The notes under the pieces were generated by a model. The model saw only the letters and a program-made list of their open reading frames with translations. It was not told the DNA's origin and made no database searches. A stretch of 64,000 nt of DNA, taken from assembly GCA_003604985.1 (NCBI GenBank), contig QZIW01000066.1, positions 6,948 to 70,947 on the forward strand, in the 5' to 3' direction. Positions 15,327 to 33,208 of the stretch are shown here, one piece after another (position 1 is the stretch's first letter; each line of letters starts with the position of its first letter). The translations under genes and the position numbers were made by a program. The DNA is from Ammonifex sp. (lineage in GTDB: Bacteria > Bacillota > Desulfotomaculia > Desulfotomaculales > Ammonificaceae).

Positions 15327-15347
15327 GTATTCCCAAAATGGGAATAC
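15327..15347. promoter_or_regulatory. perfect inverted repeat GTATTCCCA-N3-TGGGAATAC just downstream of the promoter (operator or first leader hairpin)
   Basis: Read directly. 9-bp arms. Confidence 0.5.
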
Positions 15348-15358
15348 GATACGCCACT

Positions 15359-15390
15359 ATAATACTTTAGGTCTCTGGAGATTGTCAACA
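15359..15390 (-). promoter_or_regulatory. near-consensus sigma-A promoter pointing at the late region
   Basis: Minus strand reads TGTTGACA, 18-nt spacer, TATTAT. Lies immediately after the stop of the 15394 gene. Confidence 0.6.
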
Positions 15391-15393
15391 TGT

Positions 15394-15982: not shown

Positions 15983-16026
15983 TGCATAGTGATACCTCCT
16001 TGTCGCCTGGAGTTTAGATGTTCGCC

Positions 16027-16999: not shown

Positions 17000-17012
17000 C
17001 GTTGTCGACCTC

Positions 17013-17294
17013 CTAAATTATCCGGTTCCGACGCCTGGACTCCTGGGCCATGCGTCGCCGGTTCTTTTTGGTCCTCGCCCGCGCCCGCTTCTTCCGGGCC
17101 AGCTTGCGCTGCTGGGCCGCCCACTTTGACAGCTTACCGCCGCTGGTCAGACTAACCTGGGCGCTGTCCTTGCCGGCGAGTTTAAACCTGGCCGCGTATG
17201 CCAGTTCGAAAGGCACTTGGACAAAACCCGCCCGGGCCAGCTCCTCCTCGTTCTCCTTGGTGATCCGTCTTAGCTCTCCGGTGTCGATGTTCAA
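17013..17294 (-). CDS. hypothetical protein with basic tail
   Basis: 93-aa ORF. C-terminus KKRARARTKKNRRR. Confidence 0.45.
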   Translation of the reverse strand: MNIDTGELRRITKENEEELARAGFVQVPFELAYAARFKLAGKDSAQVSLTSGGKLSKWAAQQRKLARKKRARARTKKNRRRMAQESRRRNRII

Positions 17295-17309
17295 TTAGAC
17301 TCCTCCTCC

Positions 17310-18891: not shown

Positions 18892-18907
18892 GGCCAGCCC
18901 TCCTTTC

Positions 18908-19282
18908 TCAAAATCCTATTTTTTCGAGTACAGCGTCGTGCTCCTTAACCAACTGGTCAGCATACTCGAACGCCTGCTTCCGCTCGTTGCCCTTAAACCG
19001 CCGGCTGTGAAGGACGGGGTAATGGGTGCGGTCCCCGCCCGGTATGTCCGGTATAAGCCGCAGCCCGACGTAAAACTCAACCCGCGTGGTGAAGTGTTCT
19101 CGCCCGAGATAAACCACCTTGCGGAACTTAGTGTTTTTAATTACCTCCAACTGCGCCTTGGCCGCCGCCGCGTAGCTGATAATGGCCCGTATGTCCTGGT
19201 CGGCAAGTTCCAGCTGTATTCGGACGCTTCCGGCGTCGTAGTCGCGTTTCAGGTCTTCCAATGCTTTCTGGTTGTAATTCAC
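18908..19282 (-). CDS. hypothetical phage protein
   Basis: 124-aa ORF packed between the Dam and DUF5131 genes. Confidence 0.5.
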   Translation of the reverse strand: MNYNQKALEDLKRDYDAGSVRIQLELADQDIRAIISYAAAAKAQLEVIKNTKFRKVVYLGREHFTTRVEFYVGLRLIPDIPGGDRTHYPVLHSRRFKGNERKQAFEYADQLVKEHDAVLEKIGF

Positions 19283-19284
19283 GA

Positions 19285-20145
19285 TTAGCCCTCCTTGTTA
19301 AAAATCGTTACCTGCTCCACGGTCAAGGTCGCCGCGGCCACCGGGTTGATCCATAGTGTCTCGGTGCGCCGCCGGCCTCCCTCCGCTAAGGCCCTGGTGG
19401 TTTTGCGTTTCCAATGGCTTAGCCGGTCCTGGTATAACTGGCAGTCATAGCCCGATATGAGGACCGGGCCGGGGTGCTGGTCCAGGGCGTCCAAAAGCTC
19501 CGCGTGCTGCTCGTCGGTCATTTCGTGGGCGTATTGCGCCTTTTCTCTTCGGGTGGCCAGTAAATACGGCGGGTCCGCGTAGATCAGGACGCACGGGTGC
19601 TTATATCGTTCAATCAGTTGCATTGCGGGCTGGTTCTCTATTTGCGCCTGTTTAAGCCTTTCCGCTACGGCGAGGATCCGGACCGGCAAGCTGTTCCATA
19701 TCTTCGCGCAACTGGTCCCTTGCCTTCCCTGGATGTCGTTTCTCCAGCCCGTGCGGTGGCATAGCTTTGTGCCGCGGGCCATCCAGCAGCGAACCAGGAA
19801 CCGGCGGGCGTCCTCGAGAGCTTCGCCCGTTCGTTCGTAGCTTTCGTAATACTCTGCCCTCGCCCACGGTGTCTTTTCAATTAGGGCTGCCATGCCCTTT
19901 GGTCTTTCCCTAATAACCCGGAAGAGGTTGACGACGTCGCCGTTAATATCGTTAATAGTCTCGGTATGCGACGGGGGTTTAACGAAAAAGACCGCGCCGC
20001 TTCCAAAAAAGGGCTCAAGATAGGTTGAATGTGGCGGGAAATGTTTAACAATCCAACGCGCTATATTCCACTTCGAGCCCGGGTACCTTAAAACTGGCTT
20101 AAGCTCTGCCGGTCTCACGAACAACCGCCCCTTCCTCGGCCTCAT
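19285..20145 (-). CDS. DNA adenine methyltransferase (D12/Dam class)
   Basis: 286 aa. LRYPGSKW, LEPFFGSGAVFF and YADPPYL motifs. Confidence 0.85.
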   Translation of the reverse strand: MRPRKGRLFVRPAELKPVLRYPGSKWNIARWIVKHFPPHSTYLEPFFGSGAVFFVKPPSHTETINDINGDVVNLFRVIRERPKGMAALIEKTPWARAEYYESYERTGEALEDARRFLVRCWMARGTKLCHRTGWRNDIQGRQGTSCAKIWNSLPVRILAVAERLKQAQIENQPAMQLIERYKHPCVLIYADPPYLLATRREKAQYAHEMTDEQHAELLDALDQHPGPVLISGYDCQLYQDRLSHWKRKTTRALAEGGRRRTETLWINPVAAATLTVEQVTIFNKEG

Positions 20146-20419
20146 ACTGCAGCCCGCCCACCACGTCGGCGATCATCGTAGCGACGTTGTTTACGTCGGC
20201 CGCCTCCTCCGCGATGGCTTCCGGCGACTTCCACAGGATAGCTTCGTATAGCTCGGCTACTTCTTCCATCAGCTTGCGGAACAGGACGATGGCTGGAGTG
20301 CCCTGGTAGCTCTTGTGGTCGTTCGCCCTGAGTTTGATCTCCATTTTCCTGGCGATCGCCTGGACTACCGGGCGCGGCTCGATCGGCGCGGTCAGCGGGA
20401 CCGGCACGGCGTTTTTCAT
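20099..20419 (-). CDS. MazG-like nucleotide pyrophosphohydrolase (probable)
   Basis: 106 aa. LMEEVAELYEAI...AEEAADVNNVATMIADV is an EExxE/ExxxD helix pair. Confidence 0.5.
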   Translation of the reverse strand: MKNAVPVPLTAPIEPRPVVQAIARKMEIKLRANDHKSYQGTPAIVLFRKLMEEVAELYEAILWKSPEAIAEEAADVNNVATMIADVVGGLQYEAEEGAVVRETGRA

Positions 20420-20640
20420 TCCCTCACCTCCTGGCGTTTTGTCTTGGAAATGGCCTCCTTCAACCTTGCGATGCTGGTTTGTGCGTCGGCCTCGTTAGTG
20501 ACTTCCTTATCAAGGCATTTCACCCAGACATGCACGGTTATTGCTGCTTGGTAACCGTGTTCCTCAGAGAGTTTTACCAGTTCGGCAGCAGTTTCAGGCT
20601 TAATTCGTGGAGTACACTGGAACGGTGCCAGGGCGTCCAT
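20416..20640 (-). CDS. hypothetical phage protein
   Basis: 74-aa ORF with ATGA-type coupling to its neighbour. Confidence 0.45.
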   Translation of the reverse strand: MDALAPFQCTPRIKPETAAELVKLSEEHGYQAAITVHVWVKCLDKEVTNEADAQTSIARLKEAISKTKRQEVRE

Positions 20641-20886
20641 CTAAAAATCACCTACTATCTTCATGTGCTCGATTTGCTCTTGGGATGGCTGCGGGAATCC
20701 ATTGCACCGGGCGTCTTCAAAACCAGCAAGCGCCTTTTCAGCGTTATTAATCGCTGTCCGTTCCGTTGAGCCTAAACCGGCATCAACCGACGGGTCAGGA
20801 TATTTGTCTCGGTATGCTTCGCCGGCGGTTTTGACGTCTGCACGTAAATCCAACCACTTTTCAAAGACTTTAGGTGGCATTGCCAT
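20641..20886 (-). CDS. hypothetical phage protein
   Basis: 81-aa ORF in the same tightly packed block. Confidence 0.45.
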   Translation of the reverse strand: MAMPPKVFEKWLDLRADVKTAGEAYRDKYPDPSVDAGLGSTERTAINNAEKALAGFEDARCNGFPQPSQEQIEHMKIVGDF

Positions 20887-21412
20887 AACTGCAACTCACC
20901 TCCTGGCAGAACAAAATCGGCTCGGGTACTCGCCTGGCATACAGCGGGTGCCTGGGGTGGCCGTCCTTGGTCAGCCCGACACAGTACAGGGGCTTGCGGA
21001 TTTCCTGGATCAACTGAATAACCTGCTTGTCCCTGCCCTTAAACGCGCCCCTGGTCCCCCAGGCGGCTACAACCCACTGGCAGCCCATTGCCGCCCGGAC
21101 TATGTGCTTATCGTTTTCCGGGCCCACCGGGTCCGCAGCCCTCAGTAGTTCTCTTGGATCGGTCGCCCGGTAGGCGAAAAGGTTAACGACCTCGATGCCG
21201 CCGCAGCCCCAGGCTTTAGCCAGGCTGATACATCGTCGGATGGTGGGATCGTCCTGCCGGGCGTCCGCCGTACTGGGGTTAAGCATGATGAAGCAGGCGC
21301 GGTCCATTATGTCCGGCAGTTGGAGCAGGGTGAGGTACTGGCGGGTTCTCCATTCGCGGATTAGTGAGTAACGATATTTACCTGTTTCGTCGATCTCCGC
21401 AGAGGATTTCAT
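20870..21412 (-). CDS. DUF1643-family protein (UDG-like fold superfamily)
   Basis: ATG 21412. ...YRYSLIREW...CFIMLNPSTADA...DDPTIRRC...HPRHPLY matches DUF1643. The track ORF upstream of 21412 overlaps the loader gene. Confidence 0.7.
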   Translation of the reverse strand: MKSSAEIDETGKYRYSLIREWRTRQYLTLLQLPDIMDRACFIMLNPSTADARQDDPTIRRCISLAKAWGCGGIEVVNLFAYRATDPRELLRAADPVGPENDKHIVRAAMGCQWVVAAWGTRGAFKGRDKQVIQLIQEIRKPLYCVGLTKDGHPRHPLYARRVPEPILFCQEVSCSYGNAT

Positions 21413-21416
21413 ACCC

Positions 21417-22103
21417 CTACCCCCTGTGCAGCCGGTAGTTGCTCTCCGGCTGCTCGATAATACTGATGTGCCCGCGTGCCCTTTCCAGGATGCGGGAGCC
21501 GGTAGCCTGGTCGACCGCCAAAATCTCCTCCGGCGTCCGCTCGCTGGAGATAATCGTCGGCAGGCCATGCAGATAGCGATAGTTCACGATCAGGAAAATG
21601 GTCTCCATCACCCACGGGATAGGCGCTTCTCGCCCTTTCAGGAAGTCGTCCCAGAGCAGCAGATCCGCCTTCTTGATCTCCTCCGTCCGGGCGTGGGTGC
21701 CGGCGCTGGTTTTCAGCGCCGCCAGCAATTCCTCCATTACCTCGACGTGCGGAATATAGGCCACCGTGAGCCCGGTCTTCAAGGCCCGGTTAGCCACCGC
21801 CATGCATAGGTGGGTCTTGCCTGATCCGGGGACGCCCAGGAGGACCAGCCAATTGTTTTCGCCCAGGTCGCCCTCCTCCAACTGCCGGACATAGTGCCGG
21901 GCGCTCGACCACATGGAGCGTACTTCCGGCGTCGAGCTGTCCGGGTGAAAGTTCTCGAAGGTCTTAGCCCGGAAGGACTCGGTTATCCGGCTCGCCTTTA
22001 GCTGCCGTTCGAGCAGGCGCTGCCGCATACACTCGCAGGGCCTGGCCGTTTTGTGGTCCAGGAGGATCAGCCCGCGGTCGTGGCAGATGTTGCACTCAGG
22101 CAT
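21417..22103 (-). CDS. DnaC/DnaI-like replicative helicase loader (IstB-type ATPase)
   Basis: ATG 22103 overlaps the Rep-O-like stop (GATGCCTGA). N-terminal CNICHD...CEC zinc motif. Walker A GVPGSGKTH. Walker B LLLWDD. Confidence 0.85.
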   Translation of the reverse strand: MPECNICHDRGLILLDHKTARPCECMRQRLLERQLKASRITESFRAKTFENFHPDSSTPEVRSMWSSARHYVRQLEEGDLGENNWLVLLGVPGSGKTHLCMAVANRALKTGLTVAYIPHVEVMEELLAALKTSAGTHARTEEIKKADLLLWDDFLKGREAPIPWVMETIFLIVNYRYLHGLPTIISSERTPEEILAVDQATGSRILERARGHISIIEQPESNYRLHRG

Positions 22104-23181
22104 CGGCGTCGCCGGCGTAGACGAATTTGCTCCTGTCGATCGACGCCGGTAGTTTTCCAGGTCTGGTTGCACCTGTTCCATTGTTTCCTCGCGCTCCTTC
22201 CATATCTCGTTTGAGCCCGCGAATGATCCCGTGCGTGTATTCCTCCCGCCTGTTCGGGTACTTTTCGATGTGTAGTTTCATGGCCTGAATAACCAGTTCG
22301 GGCGGGAAGGTTGACCATTTGTCCATCCACGCCTGGACGACCGACATAGCCAGCCGGTTGCCCTTTCTGGTCCGGCGGATCATGGTCCAGTACCGCTTGA
22401 TGGCCTCCTGTTGCTGTGGTGAATAGCGTTCGTGCAGTTCTTCGAGAGAGGGAGGGCCCTCTTTGTCGTCGTCGTGAGCGGTCTCTTTAGAGAGTTTGTT
22501 TAAATCTTTATTTCTTATAATGAGTGGGTCGGTTTGTGGTATCTGGTGAGAGTCCATAAAGTCGCCGTTTGTGGTATCTGGTGAGCTACCAGAAACGTCC
22601 TGACCGTTTTGTGGTATCTGGTGAGCTACCAGTAATGGTGTTTGTGGTCGCTGACCAGCTACCAAAAGAGGGTCTTGCGGTATCTGGTGAGCTACCGAAT
22701 CGGCGGACTCTTTTTGGTCCGTAGGCACTTGCCCTGCTTGTGGTCGCTCGTCAGCTACCACTACGTTGGTTTGTGGTCGCTCGTCAGCTACCGCAAACAG
22801 GTTGCATTTGTGCCCAACGGTCTGCCAGCGGTCGGCGTATTTCTGATACCGGTAGGCTGCCGGACGCCTGCCCTCGCTCGGGCGGGTGACCAGAATTCCC
22901 ATGTCGACCAGCGCCTGTAGGCCCCGGATAACCGTGGACTTGGCCATGCCAGTGATGTCGGCAAACTCCTGGGTGCCGATATGCGCCCACTGCTTCTTGA
23001 TCGGCCGGCCGTCGCCGTCGCGCAGGGCGCTGCCGTCTATGTCGCGTTCGCAGTCGCCCCATGTCTTTCGGAGAACGACAAAAACGAGTTGGTACTGGGG
23101 GCCGCTGAGGCAAGCCTTGGCCAGGTCTTCGAGCACCAAGTTGGCGATCTGCGTATAGCCGTTTTCCAACTGCGGCCCCAT
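22096..23181 (-). CDS. replication initiator / replisome organiser (lambda O-like N-terminal domain)
   Basis: ATG 23181 behind TAGGAGGA. MGPQLENGYTQIANLVLEDLAKACLSGPQYQLVFVVLRKTWG. The central repetitive peptide (HQIPQ / ADERPQ) is encoded by the iterons. Confidence 0.8.
   Translation of the reverse strand: MGPQLENGYTQIANLVLEDLAKACLSGPQYQLVFVVLRKTWGDCERDIDGSALRDGDGRPIKKQWAHIGTQEFADITGMAKSTVIRGLQALVDMGILVTRPSEGRRPAAYRYQKYADRWQTVGHKCNLFAVADERPQTNVVVADERPQAGQVPTDQKESADSVAHQIPQDPLLVAGQRPQTPLLVAHQIPQNGQDVSGSSPDTTNGDFMDSHQIPQTDPLIIRNKDLNKLSKETAHDDDKEGPPSLEELHERYSPQQQEAIKRYWTMIRRTRKGNRLAMSVVQAWMDKWSTFPPELVIQAMKLHIEKYPNRREEYTHGIIRGLKRDMEGARGNNGTGATRPGKLPASIDRSKFVYAGDADA
22532..22792. repeat. phage replication origin: seven roughly 24-bp iterons inside the initiator gene
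   Basis: GTTTGTGGTATCTGGTGAGCTACC-type copies at 22532, 22567, 22606 and 22672. GTTTGTGGTCGCT(C/G)(G/A)(T/C)CAGCTACC-type copies at 22640, 22736 and 22769. An AT-rich stretch at 22490-22530 adjoins them. Confidence 0.8.
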
Positions 23182-23191
23182 CAATATCCTC

Positions 23192-23638
23192 CTAAGAGAT
23201 TTTTTGCTGCAACTCTCCGATCGGCGGCGGGTCGCCGTATTCAAATAGGCGGCATCGTATAACCTTGGTCAAAATCATTGTGGTGGGCCTGCCCGCCTCC
23301 AGCGCCCTCGGAACGTCGGCCACGGGCGCTGTCCGCTCGGTGTACTCAACCAAGCTTGACTTGTCGCCCTTGGCTATCCAGTCGCACAGCAGCGCGGTTG
23401 CGCGGCTGCAATAGAAGCAGGCGGACATGCTGCCGTCGAGTTTAAGGGGCACCTTCGCCGGGTGCGGAGGCTCGTACTTAATATCCAACCGGCTCGCCAT
23501 GGAGCGCGCTTGGCTGACCGTCCGGTTGAACCCGGCCCGCTTGAGCGCCTTGCAAGTTGCCTGGGGGCCGTGCTGCTTATAGTACCGGGCAAGGATTTGC
23601 TTCTCTTGGTCCTGCCACGCTTGGCCCAACTTCATCAC
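23192..23638 (-). CDS. hypothetical phage protein
   Basis: 148-aa ORF upstream of the initiator gene. Confidence 0.5.
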   Translation of the reverse strand: MMKLGQAWQDQEKQILARYYKQHGPQATCKALKRAGFNRTVSQARSMASRLDIKYEPPHPAKVPLKLDGSMSACFYCSRATALLCDWIAKGDKSSLVEYTERTAPVADVPRALEAGRPTTMILTKVIRCRLFEYGDPPPIGELQQKIS

Positions 23639-24081
23639 CTCGCAAACACGTGGTTGCCGATCCGCACGGTTATCGGCCGCGTCCTGATCCAGCGATCGGT
23701 AGCCGTCCGCGGGTTGTAGAAGAAAAGCGCACCCCGTGACGGGTCTACGCCTTCGAGCGCCAGAAACGCAGCCCAGAGACTGTCTGGACTTGGGCGGATG
23801 CCGTGCCGGTTGGCGAACTGAGGGGAAGGCATCCGCTGGTCGACCACAGCCGGGACGGTGGAGGGCCAGCGTGGGTCCTTAGTCCGGTTGACCACGACGG
23901 CCCCCACCGCTACCTTGCCCGCCAGCGGTTCGAGTGCGGCCTCAACCTCGATCAGCGCGGCCAGTTCAACCAGGCCGGGCTTGTATAGAGGGGAGGCGTG
24001 GGCGGGTGACGTAAAAAAATTGAGCATTGCCGCCAGAACCAATAAGAATCCGAGGCTTTCCCTCAACTCGCCACCTCCCAA
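23635..24081 (-). CDS. SleB-type cell wall hydrolase with signal peptide
   Basis: 148 aa. Hydrophobic N-terminus LGFLLVLAAMLNFFTSPAHA. ...AVGAVVVNRTKDPRWPSTVPAVVDQ...QF... matches the Hydrolase_2 pattern. Confidence 0.7.
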   Translation of the reverse strand: MGGGELRESLGFLLVLAAMLNFFTSPAHASPLYKPGLVELAALIEVEAALEPLAGKVAVGAVVVNRTKDPRWPSTVPAVVDQRMPSPQFANRHGIRPSPDSLWAAFLALEGVDPSRGALFFYNPRTATDRWIRTRPITVRIGNHVFAR

Positions 24082-24536
24082 GGCGCCTGCCAGTCCCAGA
24101 GGCCCTGAGCGCCCCTGGCCGGTATGGCCGGTTCAAAATGTTGAGGGTCGATGAAATCCCAGGCGAACCGGCCGGGCCGGTAGTCTCCGAAAGACCGCTC
24201 GGGCTCGCCGGGAAGCTGGCGGACCACGAAATAACCGCAGGTCCGGTTGTCGGCCGCTTCGACCATGCCGCCGGGTGTAATGCGGAATATGGTCTGCAGT
24301 TTCGCCTGGCCCACAATACAGCCCAACGGCAGGTCGCAGCCGATAATCCCGGCTTTTCTAAGCACTGAGAGGAAGGGCTCCTGCCGGCATAACTCCCGCG
24401 CCCAGGCCGGGAAGTTTTTGGCGGCGTGGATTGCCACGGGCCCACGGTAGTTCGTCGCCCAAGACCGGGTTTCCGGGCCTTTGAGGTTGAGCGCCAGCAA
24501 AGTGGCGTATGGCTGGTAAAGCGTTAGGGCCTTCAT
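24063..24536 (-). CDS. ASCH domain protein
   Basis: ATG 24536 with ATGA coupling. MKALTLYQPYATLLA...KGPETRSW... is a typical ASCH N-terminus. Confidence 0.65.
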   Translation of the reverse strand: MKALTLYQPYATLLALNLKGPETRSWATNYRGPVAIHAAKNFPAWARELCRQEPFLSVLRKAGIIGCDLPLGCIVGQAKLQTIFRITPGGMVEAADNRTCGYFVVRQLPGEPERSFGDYRPGRFAWDFIDPQHFEPAIPARGAQGLWDWQAPWEVAS

Positions 24537-24823
24537 TGGTAGGCCCTCTCCAGATGCCGCGAAGCGAGAACGCAGGGCGTCATTAAAACCTCGACAACCG
24601 TATTCTCGTCGACCGTCGTAGCCGGTCCAATCTCTGACTCTTGCTCTTGCGGAAAGTGAACTATGCAAACCTTGTGCTTTCTAAAAAACGCTTTTCTCTC
24701 GCCCACATAACCAACTCTTCCGTCCGGTTCCGGCAGCCGGATGACGGTGCCGTAATGGACGTTCTTAATCGCAGCCTCAACCTTGGCCACTATTTTCCTC
24801 TCCCTCCTGTTCGTTTTGCTCAA
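24533..24823 (-). CDS. hypothetical phage protein
   Basis: 96-aa ORF. Confidence 0.45.
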   Translation of the reverse strand: MSKTNRRERKIVAKVEAAIKNVHYGTVIRLPEPDGRVGYVGERKAFFRKHKVCIVHFPQEQESEIGPATTVDENTVVEVLMTPCVLASRHLERAYQ

Positions 24824-25319
24824 CCGGGGCCGGTTGTTGGACCGGCCCCGTATCGCATACCGGGCGCATCGCTGGGATAAGGACGTCGACTAACCAGTTA
24901 CGGAAAGCCAGGACTATATGTGTCGGTTGCGGTGGCGTCACCGATAAGGACAGGCGGCCAAGGGACTCGATAAGCGCCACACCTTCGCGGCCGGCCTGGG
25001 ATAGCAGGAAAGGGTCAGGGCCTATCAGTTGCCACAGGTGGAAGCAATTGTGGTGGATGTTGACATAGTTTTCTGGCGCGGGTAATAGCATACCCACCTG
25101 GATGTCAGGCGGCATGAACGTGTAACGGGCGTCGCGGATTTCATCCCACGTCGGGTAGCGCGTACCGTGGGCAATGCTCAGGTGCCAGCGGCCTCCCTCG
25201 ATGCCCACCATCACCTTGCACTCGCCGTATTCAAAGGCGCGGGCGGTCGGGGCTGGTGAGGGAATTTCTTTTATTTTCCTCGGTTCGTGTTTCTTGTCCG
25301 GTTTTTTGGCGTGCGACAA
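24777..25319 (-). CDS. hypothetical phage protein
   Basis: 180-aa ORF. The ...GGRWHLSIAHGTRYPTWDEIRDARY... motif recurs in phage proteins of unknown function. Confidence 0.5.
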   Translation of the reverse strand: MSHAKKPDKKHEPRKIKEIPSPAPTARAFEYGECKVMVGIEGGRWHLSIAHGTRYPTWDEIRDARYTFMPPDIQVGMLLPAPENYVNIHHNCFHLWQLIGPDPFLLSQAGREGVALIESLGRLSLSVTPPQPTHIVLAFRNWLVDVLIPAMRPVCDTGPVQQPAPVEQNEQEGEENSGQG

Positions 25320-25339
25320 AATAGTTGCCTCCTTTACTG

Positions 25340-26419
25340 TTAGCGGAGTAAGGCACCGGGCAGCCAGTCCACGAACTGGTCCAGCAGCCCCTGGTCCTTG
25401 CAGACTTTCGACAGGTCTTTTATCTCCAGCGGATTGTTGATGTCCGGCGAGAAGAACACGCCGGCCAGTTCGAGCACTTTTTCCCTCGTAATACCCATCG
25501 CGTAAACGGCCTGCCAGAACTCATTCCACTTGATCTTGCCGTTCCCGCTGTTGCCGTTTTGCCGGGCTGGGCCGGCTTGAGCTTCCGGAGCAGGTTGCGG
25601 ACCGGGTTTCGGCGGCGGCTCCTTGGTCTCGGCTGGCCCGCCTTCGGACCCGTTAACTACCTCGCCGTCTATAACCTTGCCGTCCGCGAGCACGTCCGGC
25701 GGGAAAAGGTCGTCCGGGGCTTCGTTCATGTCCAGGTCGATGCCCTGGGGAAGCGCATTTTCCTGGGGTATCGACTTCAGCATTTGCTCAAGCGTTAAAT
25801 GCTGATAGTGCAAGTCCAGGACGTAGACCGTTTTCTTCTTGCCCTCCACCGTGGCCTCATGCGGCTTGACCATCAGCTTCAGCGGAATCATGGCAATACG
25901 GCCACCAGTGAGTGACATTAAGAATCTAATGGCGCTGTTGAGGTTCAGGATCGTGTTGATGCTTCTGCTGTCCAGTTGCCAGCAGCCGATACCGGGAACC
26001 TTTGGCAGCAGGAACATCAGCGTGCCCACCGCTAGGCATTGTTTATTCTGGTACCACTCGCAGGTGTCGGGATTGCAGTCGATCTCCCGCAGCTCTCCGG
26101 TCTCCCGGTCCGCCTCTACCGCCTTCACCCCGTCGCCTTTGCAGATCAGGCCCGTGCCTTTTCCATAGCGCCGGTACCACTGCGGGAAGAAAGTTTCGAT
26201 ATTGTGTACCGGAAACATGATGTCGAGCACCTTGGGCTTTTCGCCGTAGACGTCGTGGAAAGCCTTGGCCATTGACTCCGGCGTGGACTGATCGGGATTG
26301 ACGACGAAATAGTCGACAGGTTTGGGGTAAGAAGACCGCTGCCCTTCCACCTTGACGCCCAGGCGGACCTTGCCCAGCCGGGGCAGCCTGGTACGCTCGG
26401 AAAGATTCTTAATCGGCAT
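25340..26419 (-). CDS. conserved-looking phage early protein with Cys-rich core, function unknown
   Basis: 359 aa. ...LICKGDG...IDCNPDTCEWYQNKQC.... Pro/Gly-rich linker followed by a small C-terminal domain. Confidence 0.55.
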   Translation of the reverse strand: MPIKNLSERTRLPRLGKVRLGVKVEGQRSSYPKPVDYFVVNPDQSTPESMAKAFHDVYGEKPKVLDIMFPVHNIETFFPQWYRRYGKGTGLICKGDGVKAVEADRETGELREIDCNPDTCEWYQNKQCLAVGTLMFLLPKVPGIGCWQLDSRSINTILNLNSAIRFLMSLTGGRIAMIPLKLMVKPHEATVEGKKKTVYVLDLHYQHLTLEQMLKSIPQENALPQGIDLDMNEAPDDLFPPDVLADGKVIDGEVVNGSEGGPAETKEPPPKPGPQPAPEAQAGPARQNGNSGNGKIKWNEFWQAVYAMGITREKVLELAGVFFSPDINNPLEIKDLSKVCKDQGLLDQFVDWLPGALLR

Positions 26420-27011
26420 TGCAGGCCGCCCCCTTCCCGTTCTCCGGCTTTCGGGCTTCGATCACCCGGCTGGCCCACATGTCGGCCCAGTGCAGGATCA
26501 TCTGCAGCGGAGTCTCCCTGCCCTGGATAACGCGGCCGTCGGGCGTGTATAGGCCGTTGTGGTAGAGGATCGCGTAAGTCTCTTCCTCGGTCAGGTAGAT
26601 GTACTGGCTCAGGATGTGGACGCTGGCCACCTGGTGCGGGATCGGCAAGCGCTCCGGGTTGCAGCAGTAAGGCTTGCTGTCGCTGACCTTGCCGCTTTTT
26701 ACCCGGTTCTGGATGTAGTGCGGTTTGGAGTAGTACATCGACTTACCCAGGTCGTGGAACAGGCCGCAGATGATCAGGGAATCGTCGGGGATGTCGTCTT
26801 TGTCCAGCCCAAAGGCGTTGCGCAGCCGGAACATCAGGCCGGTGACGTTCAGCGAGTGCCGGAGGTTGCCGGCCTCGCAGGCGCCGTGGTACTGGGTGCT
26901 GGACGGCGCGGTGAAATAGTCGCCTACGGCCAGGTAAAATACAAGGTGCTCTATGCCTTCGCGTTGGACACGGCGTAAATATTCAAATAACTCGTCTTTC
27001 AAGTCTTTCAA
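26409..27011 (-). CDS. HD-domain phosphohydrolase
   Basis: 200 aa. ...LIICGLFHDLGKS... HD motif. Confidence 0.75.
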   Translation of the reverse strand: MKDLKDELFEYLRRVQREGIEHLVFYLAVGDYFTAPSSTQYHGACEAGNLRHSLNVTGLMFRLRNAFGLDKDDIPDDSLIICGLFHDLGKSMYYSKPHYIQNRVKSGKVSDSKPYCCNPERLPIPHQVASVHILSQYIYLTEEETYAILYHNGLYTPDGRVIQGRETPLQMILHWADMWASRVIEARKPENGKGAACNAD

Positions 27012-27274
27012 GCCGATTCTCCTCCTTTTTGTCCAGGCTTGACCTGCGCGTAGACGAAGGCGATCTGTCCCGGCTCGTACAGGTGGCCCGGCGTGACTCC
27101 AAGGTACTGCGCCAGTTTTTCCACCTCGTCGGGCGTCGGAACGATATGCCCGTTCTCCAGCATCGACAGCCTGGACCGTTTAATGCCGATGTGTTCGGCG
27201 ACCGCCTGCTGGGACGCAGGCTTAGCGCCTTCGGCAAGCAACTTTTCGCGGTAAAAGCGGATACCGTTCTGCAT
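27008..27274 (-). CDS. XRE-family HTH protein
   Basis: 88 aa. ...SQQAVAEHIGIKRSRLSMLENG.... Confidence 0.75.
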   Translation of the reverse strand: MQNGIRFYREKLLAEGAKPASQQAVAEHIGIKRSRLSMLENGHIVPTPDEVEKLAQYLGVTPGHLYEPGQIAFVYAQVKPGQKGGESA

Positions 27275-27283
27275 GTCTCCTCC

Positions 27284-27418
27284 TTACCCGGCAAGCCCGA
27301 AATACAGGTTGCCGATAGCGACAAAAGTGGTAAGCAAGGCCAGCCGGGCGCCGCAGCGGCGGTTAATCCAGAAGCTGGCCGGAATAAGCAGAGGGCCGAT
27401 AATAAGGCTCTGGTTCAC
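27284..27418 (-). CDS. tiny hydrophobic (two-helix) protein
   Basis: GTG 27418, 8 nt after AAAGGAGGTG, with a GTGA overlap with the upstream stop. 44 aa: VNQSLIIGPLLIPASFWINRRCGARLALLTTFVAIGNLYFGLAG. Confidence 0.45.
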   Translation of the reverse strand: MNQSLIIGPLLIPASFWINRRCGARLALLTTFVAIGNLYFGLAG

Positions 27419-27819
27419 CTGGAACGCACCTCCTTTGGGATGGAAAAAACGCAACTGCAATTCATACACCACGCCGATATAGATGCGCCGCCGCCGGCCA
27501 AGTACCGGGCGTCAAGTGCGTTACAGGCAGGGCAGCGGCCGTCTATACTGGCGGCCTTGCCCCTGAAGACGATCGCCGGCATGGACTCGTCGCCTAAAAC
27601 AAAGTTCAACTGGACTTCGTAAGGCCCGCAGTCAACATTCAGGCCAGGCGGGAGAATGTCGGTCAGGTAAGCGTTCATGGCAGCGCGGCTTATCTGTCCG
27701 CGGGCGAAGCTGTTGATCAGGCCGGCAACGCAGCGGCGGATTTTGGGCGGGGTGTGGGAGAAATAAACGATTTTCGACTTGCCCCGGATCGTTTCGGGTG
27801 TTACACTCATTACAGACAC
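27415..27819 (-). CDS. hypothetical Cys-containing protein
   Basis: 134-aa ORF. ...CPACNALD...CMNCSC.... Confidence 0.5.
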   Translation of the reverse strand: MSVMSVTPETIRGKSKIVYFSHTPPKIRRCVAGLINSFARGQISRAAMNAYLTDILPPGLNVDCGPYEVQLNFVLGDESMPAIVFRGKAASIDGRCPACNALDARYLAGGGASISAWCMNCSCVFSIPKEVRSR

Positions 27820-28368
27820 CTACTTTTTCTGAGCGCCGTTCGGGCGCTTTCTCTTTTCTGGGTACTCCTTGTCGATGTTCTCCTGCTCGACCTCGTCGTA
27901 CAGATCCGCCAGGCTGATGTCCCAGCCGTCAGAGACCACACAGAGGAACGTTTCAGCAGCGCGTATGGCCTGAATCACCTCCCGGAACATCCCTCTGGCC
28001 TGCGTTTTCTCAGGTTCGGTCAAAAGAGGGTTCAGCCACAGCCGGGGGGTTCCGCGAACCGCCTCCCCGGCTTCTTCCAATTCCAGCAGGAAATAATCCC
28101 TGGCCACAAGGCGGTGGTTTTCGATATTTGCCAGGGAAAGGGCCATCACCCCGCCGGTGGCCTCCCGCTGTAGGGCCTTGTAGAACCGTGCCTGATCGAG
28201 CGCCCGGGCGAGGTGCCGCCGCATTTCCTTCGTTATGCCCCGCTGGCCCTGTTCGATCTTGCGGACCAGGCTGCCGCTGCAGTGGGCCTTCTCTGCGAGC
28301 GCGTCGGCGCTCCGTCCCGTTTTCTTCCTTTCCTCCCTGAGAATTGTCCCAAGTTCCAGTTTGATCAC
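27820..28368 (-). CDS. HTH (XRE-like) regulator with extra C-terminal domain
   Basis: 182 aa. N-terminal ...GRSADALAEKAHCSGSLVRKIEQGQRG.... Confidence 0.65.
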   Translation of the reverse strand: MIKLELGTILREERKKTGRSADALAEKAHCSGSLVRKIEQGQRGITKEMRRHLARALDQARFYKALQREATGGVMALSLANIENHRLVARDYFLLELEEAGEAVRGTPRLWLNPLLTEPEKTQARGMFREVIQAIRAAETFLCVVSDGWDISLADLYDEVEQENIDKEYPEKRKRPNGAQKK

Positions 28369-28492
28369 ACCCCCTTTGTCCCAGCACAGGCGGGCCGGGC
28401 ATGTTACGCTTTACTTGATCACCCCGCCGGACTGAAAGTATTCAGCCCAGCGCCGTTGCCGGCGGCGTTCCCGTAGCCATTCGTGATATGAC

Positions 28493-28669
28493 TTAGCCAG
28501 CTTTTTGAGCCGTTTCCGGATCAGCCTTAGCAACCTTGCTCACCTCCTTTGCGCCGGGGTCCGGGCGGCGGCAAGCCTTGAGAGCCACGCTTGCCAGTGT
28601 GGCGGCCACGGTTACCAGGCTGGACTTTTGAGAGTTATACCGACGTTCGACCGTCAGTTGGTTACCCAT
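28493..28669 (-). CDS. small hypothetical protein
   Basis: ATG 28669 behind GGAGGAATTACG. 58 aa. Confidence 0.4.
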   Translation of the reverse strand: MGNQLTVERRYNSQKSSLVTVAATLASVALKACRRPDPGAKEVSKVAKADPETAQKAG

Positions 28670-28846
28670 CGTAATTCCTCCGGTGAGGTGTAACATGAAA
28701 TACCTTGTTGAGCTGATCGGCGACTGTGACCACAAAGAGCTGCAGCGTAAAATCAACTACTGGTTACGGGCGGAAAGGCCCCGCCGGGTCTACAGTGTCC
28801 AGTTTGTCGCCGACGGAACCGAGCTTACTTACTGCTGCCTGTTCCT

Positions 28847-29251
28847 TTACGCGCCGGGCAGATCGGCGGGCCGGTCGTCATCGGCCACAAACAAAACGCC
28901 TGGGGGGACGCCGAAGGGTTCAGCGATCCGCCGGGCGTTTCGTAGTTTGGTTTTCTTGCCCTTCTCGATCCGGCACAACCAGGCGGGTGACATACCAATT
29001 AGGCAGGCCAGGTGCGCGAGCGACCAGCCGCGGCCTACCCGCATCATCTGGAGCATCGTCACACCATACTCGTTACGCCGGGGCTCAACGAGCAGGATGT
29101 CTGTAGCCCGCCGGTGCTCCTGGTGAATGATCTGGTGTATCCGCTGGCGGCTGATCCGCAGTTCCCTGGCCACGGCAGCCTGTGTATCTCCGTTAGCCAG
29201 TTGGCTGATGATTTGCTTGGTCCGCTCGGCCATGTGCGCCAAAATAACCAC
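28847..29251 (-). CDS. early regulator with two HTH motifs (Cro/antirepressor-side gene)
   Basis: 134-aa track ORF. Start could be 29251, 29242 or 29233. ...GDTQAAVARELRISRQRIHQI... plus ...GWSLAHLACLIGMSPAWLCRIEKG.... Divergent from the repressor gene. Confidence 0.7.
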   Translation of the reverse strand: MVILAHMAERTKQIISQLANGDTQAAVARELRISRQRIHQIIHQEHRRATDILLVEPRRNEYGVTMLQMMRVGRGWSLAHLACLIGMSPAWLCRIEKGKKTKLRNARRIAEPFGVPPGVLFVADDDRPADLPGA

Positions 29252-29254
29252 CTC

Positions 29255-29276
29255 GGTGATTTAATTATAAATCACC
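29255..29276. promoter_or_regulatory. operator-like inverted repeat GGTGATTTA-N4-TAAATCACC in the divergent immunity promoter region
   Basis: Read directly. An extra GGTGAT half-site lies at 29296-29301. An extended -10, TGGTAGAAT (29342-29350), faces the repressor gene. Confidence 0.55.
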
Positions 29277-29372
29277 TAACCGGGGATGTCAATAAGGTGA
29301 TAACCATGTCGGCAATATTTTAAATTTTGGGCTTCCCAAGTTGGTAGAATAAACTTGCGGGGTGAGGAGATT

Positions 29373-29849
29373 ATGAGCATCCTTGGGGATAGACTTAGAC
29401 GTATCCGGGAAATGCAAGACCCGCCGTTGCTGCAGAAGACGGCCGCGCGGGAAATGGGCATGGAGCCGAACACCCTCAGCCGTTATGAGTTGGGGGAACG
29501 TGAGCCGGACGCCGAAACCCTGGTCAAGCTCGCCGAATACTACGGTACCACGACGGATTATTTATTGGGCAGGGCCAACAACCCGAACCTGCCGGAAGAA
29601 AGGGAAAACGGCGTGATGCAACTCGTGCCCCACCACGCCAGAGACCGGGTAGAAGCATTCTCGGAGCTTGGGGAGATAGCGGATCGGGCCGGTCTTTCGT
29701 CCGAGCAGATTACGAAGTTAATTAAGGTGATCGCCGAAGTGATTGCGCCGCCCAAGGGCAGCAGGAAAAGCAGTTTGGCGGCGCACATGGAGAGCCCTCA
29801 ACCGGGGCAGGTCGCTGGCGGGTGTGTTGATGGGGACGATAACCATTGA
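29373..29849 (+). CDS. CI-like XRE-family repressor
   Basis: ATG 29373 behind GGTGAGGAG. MSILGDRLRRIREMQDPPLLQKTAAREMGMEPNTLSRYELGEREP.... Confidence 0.8.
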   Translation: MSILGDRLRRIREMQDPPLLQKTAAREMGMEPNTLSRYELGEREPDAETLVKLAEYYGTTTDYLLGRANNPNLPEERENGVMQLVPHHARDRVEAFSELGEIADRAGLSSEQITKLIKVIAEVIAPPKGSRKSSLAAHMESPQPGQVAGGCVDGDDNH

Positions 29850-30342
29850 CCACTTGTTGCTAATTGCCTCGTTTTTGGGCGCCAGGGTGACGTATTCCGA
29901 CCTTCACGCCATACATCCAAAACTCGAGGCCTATACGAGATTCCCGGCGATCCATCTTGATAAATCCCTGGAGTGCCGTCCGCGCCAGCACAGGTGCGTT
30001 CTTGCCGAAGAGATCGGGCATGTCTGCTACCCGCCCAGACCGGGCCATGTGGCCTACCACGTCGCCGGCTCGTGGAACTCCCTGGATTATGAGGCCCGCG
30101 ACGGCTTGGCGGTAATTGTAGCCCAGGACGAACGCAAAGCCCTAAAGTGGGCAACCGGGCTGTTGATACCCAATAGCGCTTTCTGGCGCTTTGCTGGGAA
30201 AGGGCCACAAAGTATGGAAGACTGGCTGGAGGAGTTCGACGTGGAAAGGTGGTTCTTGGAAGCCAAAATCGGCCTGATCCGCGTAAGTCAGCCACCGAGG
30301 CAGCGGCTGCAGTGGAGGAATCTGATCAAACGCTCAATGTAA
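29830..30342 (+). CDS. ImmA/IrrE-like metalloprotease homolog with variant EEIGH motif
   Basis: ATG 29830 overlaps the repressor 3' end. ...CVLAEEIGHVCYPP... and ...ERKALKWATGLLIP align with HExxH ... E..An.FA..LL.P of the family. Confidence 0.65.
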   Translation: MGTITIDHLLLIASFLGARVTYSDLHAIHPKLEAYTRFPAIHLDKSLECRPRQHRCVLAEEIGHVCYPPRPGHVAYHVAGSWNSLDYEARDGLAVIVAQDERKALKWATGLLIPNSAFWRFAGKGPQSMEDWLEEFDVERWFLEAKIGLIRVSQPPRQRLQWRNLIKRSM

Positions 30343-31189
30343 AGGCGTTTCTCTGTACCTGCCTATGCTTCGCTGAAACTGCCAAACGACTTCTACAGCA
30401 GGAATGTTGTATGGTTCTAAGCATCTGCTGGAACTCCATCATCCCCCTGTTGGCGATGTTCAATTCGCCGTCAAAGCGGTAAGCGCGCGGGTCTGACTCC
30501 GACCCGTACTCAGTTATTGCGGAAAAATCTATACTGCCGGTTAGTTCTGCAATGTCCTGCGACTTCGGGTCGGACGGTGTGAACGTGCCGATACCCACTC
30601 TTTTCTCCTCCGAAAAAAGGACCCGTTCCACCGGCACTTCTTCTATTCCGCCGCTGAATTCGGTCTCCAACCGCAGTCGACATGCAGGACAGAGTTCACC
30701 CTCAATGTGGATCCCGTACTCTTCCTGAAACTCGCCCCGCAACTCGCGCGGGATAAGGTGGAGCGGTTCTTCGTGCATTGGACACCCTTTGATGCCGTAC
30801 AGTGCCCCCTCGTCCGTCCGGCTGTACTCTTCAAGCCCCCGTTTCAGCATGTTCACCAGTGTGGATTTGCCGCCGCTCACCGGGCCCATTAACAGCAGGA
30901 TCCGCTTACGGACGTCCAACCGGCGCGCTGCAGGGTGAAAGTATTCTTCAACAAGCTTTTCAAGCGTTCGGTCCAGCCCAAAAAGCTCCCGGTTAAAAAA
31001 GCAATAACGTTTTTGGCCATTAACCTCCTCAACGCCGGCTGCAGTAATCAAATCGTATAACCGGCTGTGCGCTAACCGGCACACGTGCGGGTTCTTCCGG
31101 ACTATTTCGAGATACTCCCGGAAGCTTCCCTCCCAGGCCAAACGTTGCTTGGCCGTGCGGTATTCTTCCAAGCGCCTCAAAAAGTACAA
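30326..31189 (-). pseudogene. prkA: prkA (PrkA serine protein kinase / AAA ATPase) truncated after about 258 codons by the prophage junction
   Basis: TTG 31189 behind AGGAGGGG. MYFLRRLEEYRTAKQRLAWEGSFREYLEIV..., Walker A LLLMGPVSGGKST, ...GSESDPRAYRFDGELNIANRGMMEFQQML. Resemblance to PrkA stops near 30416, then 29 unrelated codons run into phage DNA. Confidence 0.8.
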
Positions 31190-31498
31190 ACCTACCCCTC
31201 CTGGAACAGTCGTCGGCCCTTGGACGTCAGTCGCCCATGTTAAAAAATCTTCATGGCTTAGCCGGTAGTCGGTGGCCGGTGGGTCAGTGGTAGCGCCAAA
31301 TAACCTCGCTTCAATGAAATATATGCTTTCCGGAAGGTAAAAAGGACGGCATATCCGGCCGATAGCCCGAAAGCGCATTTGTCAAACAGTGGAATGACAA
31401 TCTGAATATATTATTACGGAAGGTAGAATCTCCAAGGAGGTTGCGTTTTACGGTCGCCGGCTTGCCTGAAACCGTTTTCAGGCAGGCTCCCAAAAACC

Positions 31499-33208
31499 AT
31501 GGAAAAGTTAAAGATGCTGCTTGTAAAGCTCCTTATGCTACCGTTGTTACCACTATTCGGCTGGGGACCGGTTACCCATCCTTACATTAACTTTATGGCG
31601 CTCAAGCGGGCCGAGCAGGAAGCTGCCCTTGGTAATTCGAAAATCAACCGGGGTCTTCTTGCCCGCATCAAGCGCCAACGCCCCCGTTTTATTTTCGGCG
31701 CCAACAGCGCGGATACCATTGCAACCCTGCACGTTTTCACCGGTACTCCAGTCTACGATCATACGCATAATTACGTCCCGGATTGCGCCACAGGCCGCCC
31801 GGTCTTTGGCTACGCCTTGATCCGGGAATGGTTTGAAGCCCGCGATCGCGAGGCCAGGTGTTACCCGGAAGAGGACCTGGTGGTGGCCTGCGGCTGGCTG
31901 GCCCACCAACTGGCTGACTGGTACAGCCACTACGCCGCTGTAAACAGTGAGGGCCATTTAGGCCCTGACCCTTCCGCCTCGCCGGACGGGCAGACCTTAT
32001 TCTCCGGATATGCTAATTCACACCGCGTCCTGGGAGCAGATTTTTATCCGGAAATTTTGCGCGAGTACCGGCAGATAGACCATGCCTTGATTGAGTTTTT
32101 TCACGATCTTCTTATAACCTACTACGACCGGGAGGGCATCTTTAATACGAGCAGGGTAGATTTTTTTAAGGCCTATGGCTCGGGGGCGGATGCATACAAC
32201 CTGCTCACCGCCACCTCGGAGCGTTTCCGCGGTGTTGCCGCGCGTATTTCACCCGACCAACTTTCGCTGCTCAAAGACAACCTCCGCACTACTGTCAAGG
32301 GGATCCGGCTGCTTATCCATCTGTTGTTTTTCCTCCGCCCCGGACTGCCCGACGCGGTATATCGTGACGTCAGTCCAAACGCTACCGGCGGGCCGGATTA
32401 TATCGGGCTGTCCGTAGAAGAGGTCCTGAACGGGCTTTTTTGTAAGACCGACGCGGAGATCGCCCAGGAGGCCCGTCTCCCATACAACACGCCCCGGAAT
32501 ATTTGCCCTGAGTCTTGTCTGGTGCGCGAGGTAACTACACCCGGCACTCTTCTCTTCCGAGTGGCACACCGGCTTGGTTCATTTTTACCGGAAGCGTTTA
32601 GCCAACCTTACAGTCAATCCGAAAACTTAAGTTTGCGCTTTTTGAAATTTTTTGAGTTGCGCGGCAAGTTGTTGGACCGGGTGCTGGCCGAGCTAACCCT
32701 TAAAAAGCTGCAGGCTTTCACCGAAAACACCGAGGAGAACGCGGTGCTTTCTTTCATCAGTATGCTTTTGACGGATGTCCATCCGGATTTTGAAACCGCA
32801 CGCGCACGTTTCCGCACACTCCTGCCGCCGCTCGTACAACTTGGAGGCCCAACCGAACTTTCCGAAGCAGAACGACTTACGGTGATGCTAAATGCCAGTG
32901 AAATCTGCGTCCGCGCCATTCCGGCGGCCCCATTCAATGATCCCAACCGCCGGGTTAAAACCCTTGACGTAAGTACCCTGCGCTTTTTGTTGGACGGGTA
33001 CAACGTCCTGGCAGGCACCGACTACTGTGACTTTACCGTCAATGAGAATGATTCCCGCCGGGACATCCGCGTCAGGCTGAAAGAACCAGTGTCGGAAGGG
33101 TATCACCGGCTCTCGGTAACGATAAATGATTTTTACGGCGTGTCAGCCAAACCTCTGGAGCGAGACTTCTGGATCGACGTTGGAACTACGGTTCGAATAA
33201 TTCGGTAA
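31499..33208 (+). CDS. secreted zinc-dependent phospholipase C / P1-nuclease-fold protein with long C-terminal extension
   Basis: 569 aa. Signal-like N-terminus, GWGPVTHPY at the mature start, HQLADWYSH and HALIEFFHD His/Asp clusters. Confidence 0.6.
   Translation: MEKLKMLLVKLLMLPLLPLFGWGPVTHPYINFMALKRAEQEAALGNSKINRGLLARIKRQRPRFIFGANSADTIATLHVFTGTPVYDHTHNYVPDCATGRPVFGYALIREWFEARDREARCYPEEDLVVACGWLAHQLADWYSHYAAVNSEGHLGPDPSASPDGQTLFSGYANSHRVLGADFYPEILREYRQIDHALIEFFHDLLITYYDREGIFNTSRVDFFKAYGSGADAYNLLTATSERFRGVAARISPDQLSLLKDNLRTTVKGIRLLIHLLFFLRPGLPDAVYRDVSPNATGGPDYIGLSVEEVLNGLFCKTDAEIAQEARLPYNTPRNICPESCLVREVTTPGTLLFRVAHRLGSFLPEAFSQPYSQSENLSLRFLKFFELRGKLLDRVLAELTLKKLQAFTENTEENAVLSFISMLLTDVHPDFETARARFRTLLPPLVQLGGPTELSEAERLTVMLNASEICVRAIPAAPFNDPNRRVKTLDVSTLRFLLDGYNVLAGTDYCDFTVNENDSRRDIRVRLKEPVSEGYHRLSVTINDFYGVSAKPLERDFWIDVGTTVRIIR

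Follow-up and report, generated by a model that had tools for sequence, protein, structure and literature searches.

All known intervening elements of sporulation genes sit in mother-cell genes (PMC4191935, PMC10747680). The described systems include skin in sigK, with SpoIVCA as well as Skr (in C. difficile, CD1231 along with CD1234), and SPbeta in spsM, together with vrin in spoVR (Geobacillus), vfbin in spoVFB, gin in gerE and yin in yabG, which belong to the same class (PMC4191935, PMC5595907, PMC10747680). SPbeta is a full-size temperate phage in a mother-cell sporulation gene, its large serine recombinase (LSR) SprA uses att sites with inverted-repeat arms, and precise excision, for which SprB is the recombination directionality factor (RDF), rebuilds the open reading frame (ORF) (PMC4191935, PMC5499854). 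Here we describe a comparable arrangement in prkA, on a stretch of 64,000 nucleotides of the Ammonifex sp. contig QZIW01000066.1 (hereafter the window), where a prophage lies within the coding sequence. PrkA, an AAA+/Lon-like 'serine protein kinase', depends on sigma-E and is localised to the spore coat, and its knockout lowers sporulation of B. subtilis (PMC4415436; PMC9512850), its ATPase/protease activity being required (PMC9512850). The sigma-E dependence and the sporulation role are taken from B. subtilis, not from the organism of the window. We consider it likely that prkA was split here by site-specific integration of a temperate phage, and at the same nucleotide of prkA other taxa carry related elements (hereafter the relatives) whose LSR genes read into the 3' half of the target.

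In these respects the locus compares well with spsM, with precise excision predicted to rebuild prkA, and the LSR genes of the relatives resemble sprA in apparently having a vegetative-type promoter, so that direction and control would lie with an RDF (PMC4191935, PMC5499854). The two differ in that spsM belongs to the sigma-K class and prkA to the early sigma-E class, and the LSRs of the relatives match YokA/SprA only with an E-value of 9e-19. The RDF of SPbeta is SprB, whereas the candidates here are a protein like gp3 of phage phiC31 or an ORF of 35-55 aa, and mother-cell excision has been demonstrated for SPbeta only. The prkA elements are like skin in that an LSR gene lies beside one junction, and several of the relatives are 4-10-kb non-phage remnants that still split the gene. 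In contrast, skin is defective while the window element looks complete, and the prkA LSRs read into the 3' half of the target, from which they take their stop codon. The gin element is a minimal unit of recombinase and small RDF, and the elements of loci L191 and L016 resemble it. The target of vrin, spoVR, is functionally linked to prkA-yhbH (PMC4191935, PMC5595907, PMC10747680), and in prkA-yhbH different LSR lineages use several independent target sites, a situation not described for the genes split by vrin, vfbin, gin and yin. Listeria prophage phi10403S in comK (active lysogeny) is alike as a prophage in a host regulatory or developmental gene that may serve as a reversible switch; it differs from the window phage in recombinase context and cell biology.

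No paper linking prkA to intervening elements, to the integration of prophages or to serine recombinases came up in full-text literature searches, a negative that does not extend to the supplementary tables of large LSR surveys, and the key papers on sporulation intervening elements contain 0 mentions of prkA. The initial annotation of the window had likewise been unaware of prkA as such a target. The proposed mechanism is of the same kind as that of known elements, with a target gene, an LSR lineage and att sites that appear to be new. Two features are undescribed for the other systems, namely a stop codon supplied by the target gene and the use of several sites of one operon by several LSR lineages.

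The prkA fragment and its junction

The 5' part of prkA occupies positions 30428-31189 of the window on the minus strand. It comprises codons 1-254, from a TTG start at 31189 to ...NRGMMEFQ, and includes the Walker A motif (GPVSGGKST). The PrkA AAA domain (PF08298) matched the minus-strand ORF 30326..31378 with an E-value of 2.7e-83, covering profile positions 2-245 of 358 only, and neither the PrkA C-terminal domain (PF06798) nor a second PrkA piece nor an LSR homologue was found anywhere in the 64-kb window. Members of the PrkA family carry PF08298 and PF06798 in one polypeptide; the intact allele on contig L091 has both, and by its domain content the window ORF is a truncated gene and not a functional member of the family.

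The same TTG is called as the start of an intact 630-aa gene of this species on two Logan contigs, L091 and L092. Window prkA DNA is identical to nt 1-772 of this allele at 770 of the 772 positions (99.7%), after which similarity ends abruptly, and no decay is visible in the fragment. The 569-aa gene to the right of prkA (31499..33208) occurs with 100% identity on both contigs, where it is followed by the intact prkA (PF08298 and PF06798) and then by DUF444/yhbH. Since the same neighbour accompanies an intact prkA there, prkA is split here at its native locus, by an insertion that is polymorphic in nature. The remaining part of the gene is present in JGI metagenome 3300038436, on contig L094 (1,771 bp), which starts with AGGAGATGCTTAAATGCG, 5 nt ahead of ATGCTT, and encodes the remaining 375 PrkA residues at 100% identity, then yhbH. 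When window codons 1-254 were joined in silico to L094, the result was exactly the intact PrkA protein. A further contig of this metagenome, L090, stops about 90 nt short of the break, at the sole strain single-nucleotide polymorphism. The ends of L090 and L094, at or near the att site, fit either coexisting lysogen and non-lysogen haplotypes or excised and integrated forms in JGI 3300038436.

The break falls in the codon of Gln254 (EFQ/EML), within the motif NRGxMEFQ/EMLKCDEK. The sequence across it is ATGATGGAGTTCCAG GAGATGCTTAAATGCGAC in the intact allele and ATGATGGAGTTCCAG CAGATGCTTAGAACCATACAACATTCC in the window, and the attB of prkA is ATGATGGAGTTCCAGGAGATGCTTAAATGCGACGAG. The stretch after CAG remains host-like for nine bases with a single mismatch (G>C at 30427). 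Because of this mismatch and the common register of all related junctions, we placed the crossover at CAG 30428-30430 and read the nine bases, whose 'QML' mimics the host 'EML', as phage. The boundary between host and phage is most likely the CAG codon of Gln254, and attL then spans 30400..30451 on the minus strand, with the host half-site AACAGGGGGATGATGGAGTTC at 30431-30451, the crossover CAG at 30428-30430 and the phage P' half-site CAGATGCTTAGAACCATACAAC at 30406-30427. With the crossover at Gln254, the foreign tail has 33 phage codons and a stop codon (QMLRTIQHSCC...TLSV; 30326..30427, minus strand) and shares 17 nt with the end of the ImmA-like gene.

The junctions of the window, L001, L006, L016, L130 and L191 align in one register. 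Related junctions vary in sequence immediately behind CAG at the 5' side and immediately ahead of it (CAA in L013) at the 3' side, and only CAG is shared. The arm CTTAGAACCATACAAC, which forms one end of the relatives, matches the window at 16 of 16 nt at 30406-30421, exactly at the break. This is the sole copy of the 16-mer in 64 kb, where 0.2 would be expected even with 3 mismatches; the uniqueness of the arm and its location at the break argue against chance resemblance. At the protein level NRGxMEFQEMLKCDEK is invariant across 79 species-representative loci, which implies a very stable attB.

Left of 30427, everything down to position 1 is phage, including immunity helix-turn-helix (HTH), replication, Dam methylase, terminase, portal, capsid and tail genes. 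The prophage is at least 36 kb long and runs off the contig: its right-hand 30.4 kb lie in the window (1..30427) and at least 6.5 kb follow further left, encoding the tape measure, an 854-aa Laminin_G-type tail protein and two more ORFs. The source contig of 73,230 bp (JGI metagenome 3300007354, Ga0104761_1000148) ends in tail genes. The element resembles a complete temperate siphovirus-type phage placed inside the coding sequence of prkA, and no integrase or transposase domain was found beside the immunity module or anywhere else in the 36 kb that are visible.

These results bear out much of the initial annotation. It had seen a PrkA N-terminal stump with Walker A, phage DNA everywhere to its left, an ORF end 17 nt inside the ImmA-like gene and no integrase beside the immunity module, all of which stand. 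It had also proposed a comparison with relatives lacking the prophage, now provided by L091 and L092, an alignment of junctions, which yielded the common CAG, and a prkA 3' half followed by yhbH, which L094 supplies from the junction onwards in the same population. Its boundary has to be moved: the stump has 254 codons rather than about 258, and the break near 30416 with 29 foreign codons gives way to 30428-30430 with 33.

Serine recombinase elements at the same nucleotide

PrkA N-terminal fragments of other taxa (P0001, P0010, P0020, P0050, P0056 and others) break at the same residue, in at least 15 distinct protein clusters at 90% identity. The foreign peptide RTIQ... often follows the break, as seen in P0001, P0010, P0050 and P0056, and P0010 (Moorella sp.) occurs in 47 blocks of the collection. 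The surplus of short PrkA matches is partly due to one search, another being dominated by full-length proteins; the common breaks were confirmed by inspecting the sequences. Retrieval with the C-terminal half gave 80 GTDB species-representative loci, of which 77 have an intact prkA and two are split at this site; one contig starts at the junction.

On a Moorella-like contig (L001/L111), the N-terminal part of prkA is followed by an element of 10,021 bp that carries genes for DUF5131, ParE, DUF4236/TPR, an HTH-S24 repressor, a HARE-HTH protein and, at its end, a 522-aa LSR. The LSRs of the relatives have the domains Resolvase, Recombinase and Zn_ribbon_recom, and among proteins of solved structure they are closest to serine integrases, SPbeta SprA/YokA and TP901-1 included. 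Other LSR-bearing carriers are Desulfoscipio geothermicus (L013) and a Peptococcaceae metagenome-assembled genome (L016, with a 4,032-bp element), and the LSR gene abuts the prkA 3' half on the metagenome contigs L127, L130 (with a 6,904-bp element) and L131. The element of L191 has 3,916 bp and consists of an SLH protein, a 54-aa ORF and the LSR (453 aa), while L110 is a 46-kb IMG/VR provirus with the same prkA/LSR arrangement. In the 3.9-10-kb relatives without phage structural genes, both prkA halves are free of stops and frameshifts and the LSR is intact, and in silico deletion at CAG gives PrkA ORFs of 630-631 aa in L111, L130, L016 and L191.

In the integrated state the LSR frame runs over attR and takes its last codons and its stop from prkA DNA, ending in LYGSKNNRKC, in LYGSRNSGDA or in a longer out-of-frame tail (read at L001 20760-20800, L191 9000-9035 and L013 9968-10060). 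In L191 the LSR enters the prkA 3' half in another frame and stops after 4 codons. Since prkA DNA supplies these codons only on integration, the C-terminus of the LSR would differ between the integrated and excised forms. The LSR-proximal arm GTTGTATGGTTCTAAG encodes the conserved C-terminus LYGSK, and its inverted copy CTTAGAACCATACAAC is the other end of the element.

Free attP sites, with both arms and a prkA-like centre, adjoin LSR genes in L113-L122 and L129; an example is GTTGTATGGTTCTGAACATATCAG/CAAATATTTAAACCCATACAAC in L118. The LSR genes of these contigs are 53-69% identical to the Moorella-type enzyme. The layout is that of serine integrase sites, whose attP measures about 45-50 bp and has imperfect inverted arms on either side of a short central crossover, with no long target duplication. 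On some of the attP contigs, antisense HTH and ImmA-like genes follow, and such an order (LSR gene, attP, immunity genes facing it) would give the arrangement of the window after integration.

A divergent ORF of 35-55 aa (consensus MIIERxYSxDPxDxE..ALLL) lies 50-100 nt upstream of every LSR gene of this site and is kept even in the minimal 3.9-kb element. It was located at L001 19024-19131 and L191 7441-7605, both on the minus strand, with equivalents in L013, L016, L110, L113, L118, L127, L130, L131 and L132. By size and position it recalls SprB, Skr, CD1234 and GirX, which makes it a candidate small directionality factor.

The elements of L110 and L111 are different, and the similarity of the two loci stops just upstream of the LSR gene. 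Their prkA 3' parts are 100% identical over 377 codons, while their LSR genes are 96.6% identical, with 86 differing codons (76 synonymous, 10 non-synonymous). The pattern speaks for independent integrations or for modular exchange at a single site.

Two further loci are recorded here as side observations. In L190 (927-11316; GCA_020725625.1, DYET01000198.1), which has the split at this site, the adjoining 9.5 kb encode KAS III, a Liv-type ABC transporter, an acyl-CoA synthetase and an NHL-repeat protein, an island-type cargo without phage genes that is unrelated to the cargo of L130. In L006 (6937-8959; Desulfocucumis palustris, BFAV01000130.1), extra fragments of prkA (114 aa) and of a resolvase (53 aa) lie upstream of the split prkA 5' part and look like debris of an earlier element or of a rearrangement.

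Proposed integration and excision of the window phage

The integrase of the window phage is very probably an LSR encoded at the unseen far end, in view of the shared junction arm, the gp3-like gene and the lack of an integrase or transposase in 36 kb. As in every related element with a visible far end, the LSR gene would run on through the P arm (about GTTGTATGGTTCTAAG...CAG) and enter the 3' half of prkA. At the predicted far end, the last LSR codons would come from this arm, GAGATGCTTAAATGCGACGAGCGG would follow, and the inverted arm would lie next to GAGATGCTTAAATGCG. The LSR would join attP to attB without target duplication, and together with a directionality factor, either the gp3-like protein or the small conserved ORF adjoining the LSR gene in the relatives, it would excise the phage and restore prkA precisely. 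The assignment to LSR-type elements made in the initial annotation is thus borne out for the homologues at this prkA nucleotide, which end in an LSR reading into the prkA 3' half, and stands as a prediction for the LSR of the window phage itself.

The gp3-like ORF of the window (25340..26419, minus strand) lies in the early operon, co-directional with prkA, and has no intergenic region of its own. It matches PF18897 ('Recombination directionality factor-like'), the Pfam family based on gp3 of phiC31/phiBT1, over the full length of the profile (positions 1-189 of 191; E-value 8e-55, 186 bits against a cut-off of 23.6). Unlike phiC31 gp3, the protein has 359 aa with a C-terminal extension and belongs to a Firmicute phage, and its partnership with an LSR is putative. 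It has no close relative in phage databases (IMG/VR, INPHARED) and no solved homologue. Proteins of the gp3 type are serine integrase cofactors (Fogg et al. 2018, cited in PMC12286644).

If the element followed the course known from skin and SPbeta, it would remain integrated in the germ line, and excision would take place in the mother cell, a terminally differentiated cell, where PrkA would then be made, while the spore would keep the element. We rate such behaviour as somewhat probable for the 4-10-kb relatives, and for the window element as a tentative reading whose chances fall a little short of even. A developmental step is favoured by the place of prkA in the mother-cell sigma-E regulon of B. 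subtilis, by its spore-coat product and its effect on sporulation there, by the confinement of all known intervening elements to mother-cell genes, and by several relatives that have shrunk to 4-10 kb without losing the LSR or the small ORF and with both prkA halves undamaged. A possible trigger is read-through from the prkA promoter into the co-directional early operon with the gp3-like gene. No terminator-like site was found by sequence scan between 30326 and about 29436, and given this and the direction of the prkA promoter, host sporulation transcription could both disturb immunity and express the RDF. Separately, we note that prkA transcription would run antisense through the repressor and ImmA genes and in sense into the early operon.

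A number of points weigh against an LSR-driven excision in the mother cell. The attR/LSR end of the window prophage lies beyond the contig. An exact-DNA scan of metagenome contigs for the prkA 3' side of this species gave 0 matches, in a collection without even the pattern-bearing L094, and scans of viral contigs for the attP pattern, the window P' end and attL also gave 0 matches. The predicted LSR tail, as translated from the prkA 3' half, had no match in a peptide search, a result that is uninformative given the frame used in L191, and look-ups of proteins from the left end of the window found no record. The retrieved LSR loci share no DNA with the window phage, and the phage relatives found through a tail protein carry no LSR of this type. 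The gp3-like match is a family assignment that makes the protein a candidate RDF, and the gene is absent from the small relatives. The LSR genes of the relatives are preceded by a sigma-A-like extended -10 promoter, and a regex consensus scan, which is weak evidence either way, found no clear sigma-E or sigma-K promoter upstream of them. The identical prkA 3' parts and diverged LSRs of L110 and L111 point to repeated fresh integration rather than long vertical retention. What we say of host sporulation and of excision draws on the B. subtilis literature and on in silico joining.

Some of these points favour ordinary disruptive lysogeny, in which the conserved prkA stretch merely serves as a reliable attB, lysogens without PrkA sporulate less or later, and excision occurs only on prophage induction. 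The window element looks complete, recently acquired and polymorphic in the population; near the LSR genes of the relatives the consensus scan did not detect a sporulation-type promoter; different elements have integrated independently in one host species; and loss of prkA is tolerable, as the B. subtilis mutant still sporulates at reduced efficiency (PMC4415436). Simple inactivation would, however, not lead one to expect that degenerate relatives of 3.9-10 kb keep an LSR and intact prkA halves, and the convergent targeting of prkA-yhbH, at no fewer than five sites, has a parallel in the mother-cell genes known as targets. We regard disruptive lysogeny as a serious possibility, with less than even chances.

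Two other explanations fare far worse. A tyrosine integrase or DDE transposase could be encoded in the part not seen, as the far end is missing, and the likeness to LSR junctions would then be coincidental. This is very improbable, because the window junction shares nucleotide and register with LSR elements, its 16/16-nt arm repeats in inverted orientation the coding sequence for the LSR C-terminus LYGSK of the relatives, and the phage has a gp3-like candidate RDF, a type of cofactor known only for serine integrases (Fogg et al. 2018, cited in PMC12286644). It is hardly credible that the prkA piece is an old relic or a mis-assembly with a normal prkA elsewhere. The source is indeed a metagenome contig, and contigs of another sample break at or near this point; yet the fragment is 99.7% identical to the intact allele, has the same upstream neighbour and shows no visible decay, the junction agrees to the nucleotide with independent assemblies of other taxa, and a mixture of lysogen and non-lysogen haplotypes would give the breaks seen in 3300038436. 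On identity, junction register and arm evidence, we rejected a relic, a mis-assembly and integration by a non-LSR enzyme.

Further sites in prkA-yhbH and other phage features

Breaks in prkA occur near residues 144, 254, 288 and 507, and a further one apparently lies in yhbH. The break after ...GRFALISADE (about residue 288) was found in at least 25 protein clusters and belongs to a different LSR lineage, with the LSR gene antisense directly after the prkA 5' part. Elements at this site range from about 3 kb (oxidoreductase and LSR) to full prophages. The short form is seen in Alicyclobacillus contaminans (L169/L170, 10001-14975), where an element of about 3 kb carries an oxidoreductase and an antisense LSR gene, and in Paenibacillus sp. 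598K (L171, 10001-12521) the antisense LSR gene is followed by terminase, portal, ClpP and capsid genes. IMG/VR contains 18 proviruses with a prkA 5' fragment, mostly at or near the contig edge, and in 16 of the 18 an antisense LSR gene follows. Three of them break at about 144 (L187-L189) and three at about 507 (L173, L175, L177), each group with an antisense LSR of another lineage, and eight break at 288-291 (L172, L174, L176, L178, L179, L181, L183, L186). In L180 and L184 prkA is full-length and the LSR gene lies downstream, inside yhbH. The yhbH (DUF444) of A. contaminans also stops, at about residue 346 of 391, beside a second LSR gene (L169 15013-17606, L170 15014-17608); this gene is antisense and prophage-like genes follow (DUF4236, BRCT, M78 peptidase, HTH, ParB). 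Altogether prkA-yhbH is a multi-site LSR hotspot. At least four sites in prkA and one in yhbH serve as targets, and the LSRs that use them belong to three or four lineages at least, in hosts of the Desulfotomaculia, Moorellia, Alicyclobacillaceae and Paenibacillaceae.

With these data prkA, and apparently yhbH, would join sigK, spsM, spoVFB, spoVR, gerE and yabG as genes split by excisable elements, and such elements would be known not only from Bacillus and Clostridium but also from Desulfotomaculia, Moorellia, Alicyclobacillus and Paenibacillus. The convergent targeting of several sites bears on the role of PrkA, as it would be independent evolutionary evidence that PrkA/YhbH is needed only in the terminal cell or is worth phage control. 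In a bolder reading, prkA-yhbH may be the most heavily and convergently targeted sporulation locus, and its elements would be phage-controlled sporulation switches that use the prkA promoter as a developmental sensor. The prophage would then keep PrkA off and delay or lower sporulation until excision, and in the window host sigma-E-type transcription from the prkA promoter would directly trigger phage excision through the gp3-like RDF; we think this unlikely. The cultivable carriers A. contaminans (GCA_000429525, GCA_030161695) and Paenibacillus sp. 598K (GCA_003851045), and Moorella isolates with the 10-kb element if available, make mother-cell excision directly testable. For engineering, the natural LSR/attP/attB pairs with a very conserved attB and candidate small RDFs are of interest.

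In the window prophage, the ImmA/IrrE-like M78 metalloprotease gene (29743..30342, plus strand; called with 170 aa at 29830-30342) is convergent with the prkA 5' part and matches PF06114 (E-value 4.7e-5) and phrog_87 (metallo-protease); like the gp3-like protein, its product has no close relatives in IMG/VR. The candidate Xre/CI-type HTH repressor (29355..29849, plus strand; called with 145 aa at 29412-29849) matches PF01381 (E-value 1.3e-13) and phrog_8/phrog_4 (transcriptional repressor). Divergent from its gene, a perfect sigma-70 consensus promoter (TTGACA-17-TATAAT, 12/12 matches; 29264..29292, minus strand) faces the leftward early operon, which holds HTH regulators, an HD protein, the gp3-like protein, a cell-wall hydrolase, Rep-O-like and DnaC-like proteins, the Dam methylase and DUF5131. 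Its first gene (28847..29251, minus strand) encodes an HTH/sigma-70 region-4-like regulator by profile match. The replication module (21417..23244, minus strand) comprises a Rep-O-like initiator (22096-23244) and a DnaC/IstB-like loader (21417-22181), and the packaging and head module (4045..10558, minus strand), assigned by Pfam, comprises the terminase (9278-10558), an SPP1-type portal (7802-9277), minor capsid and scaffold proteins and the major capsid protein (4045-5076). The phage also has genes of DNA-modification type at 17310-20145 and 12073-13506, both on the minus strand, which encode a nucleoside 2-deoxyribosyltransferase-like protein with DUF6811, DUF5131, a D12 Dam methylase, a 477-aa DAM-like/GNAT-phage-like protein and ParB_N.

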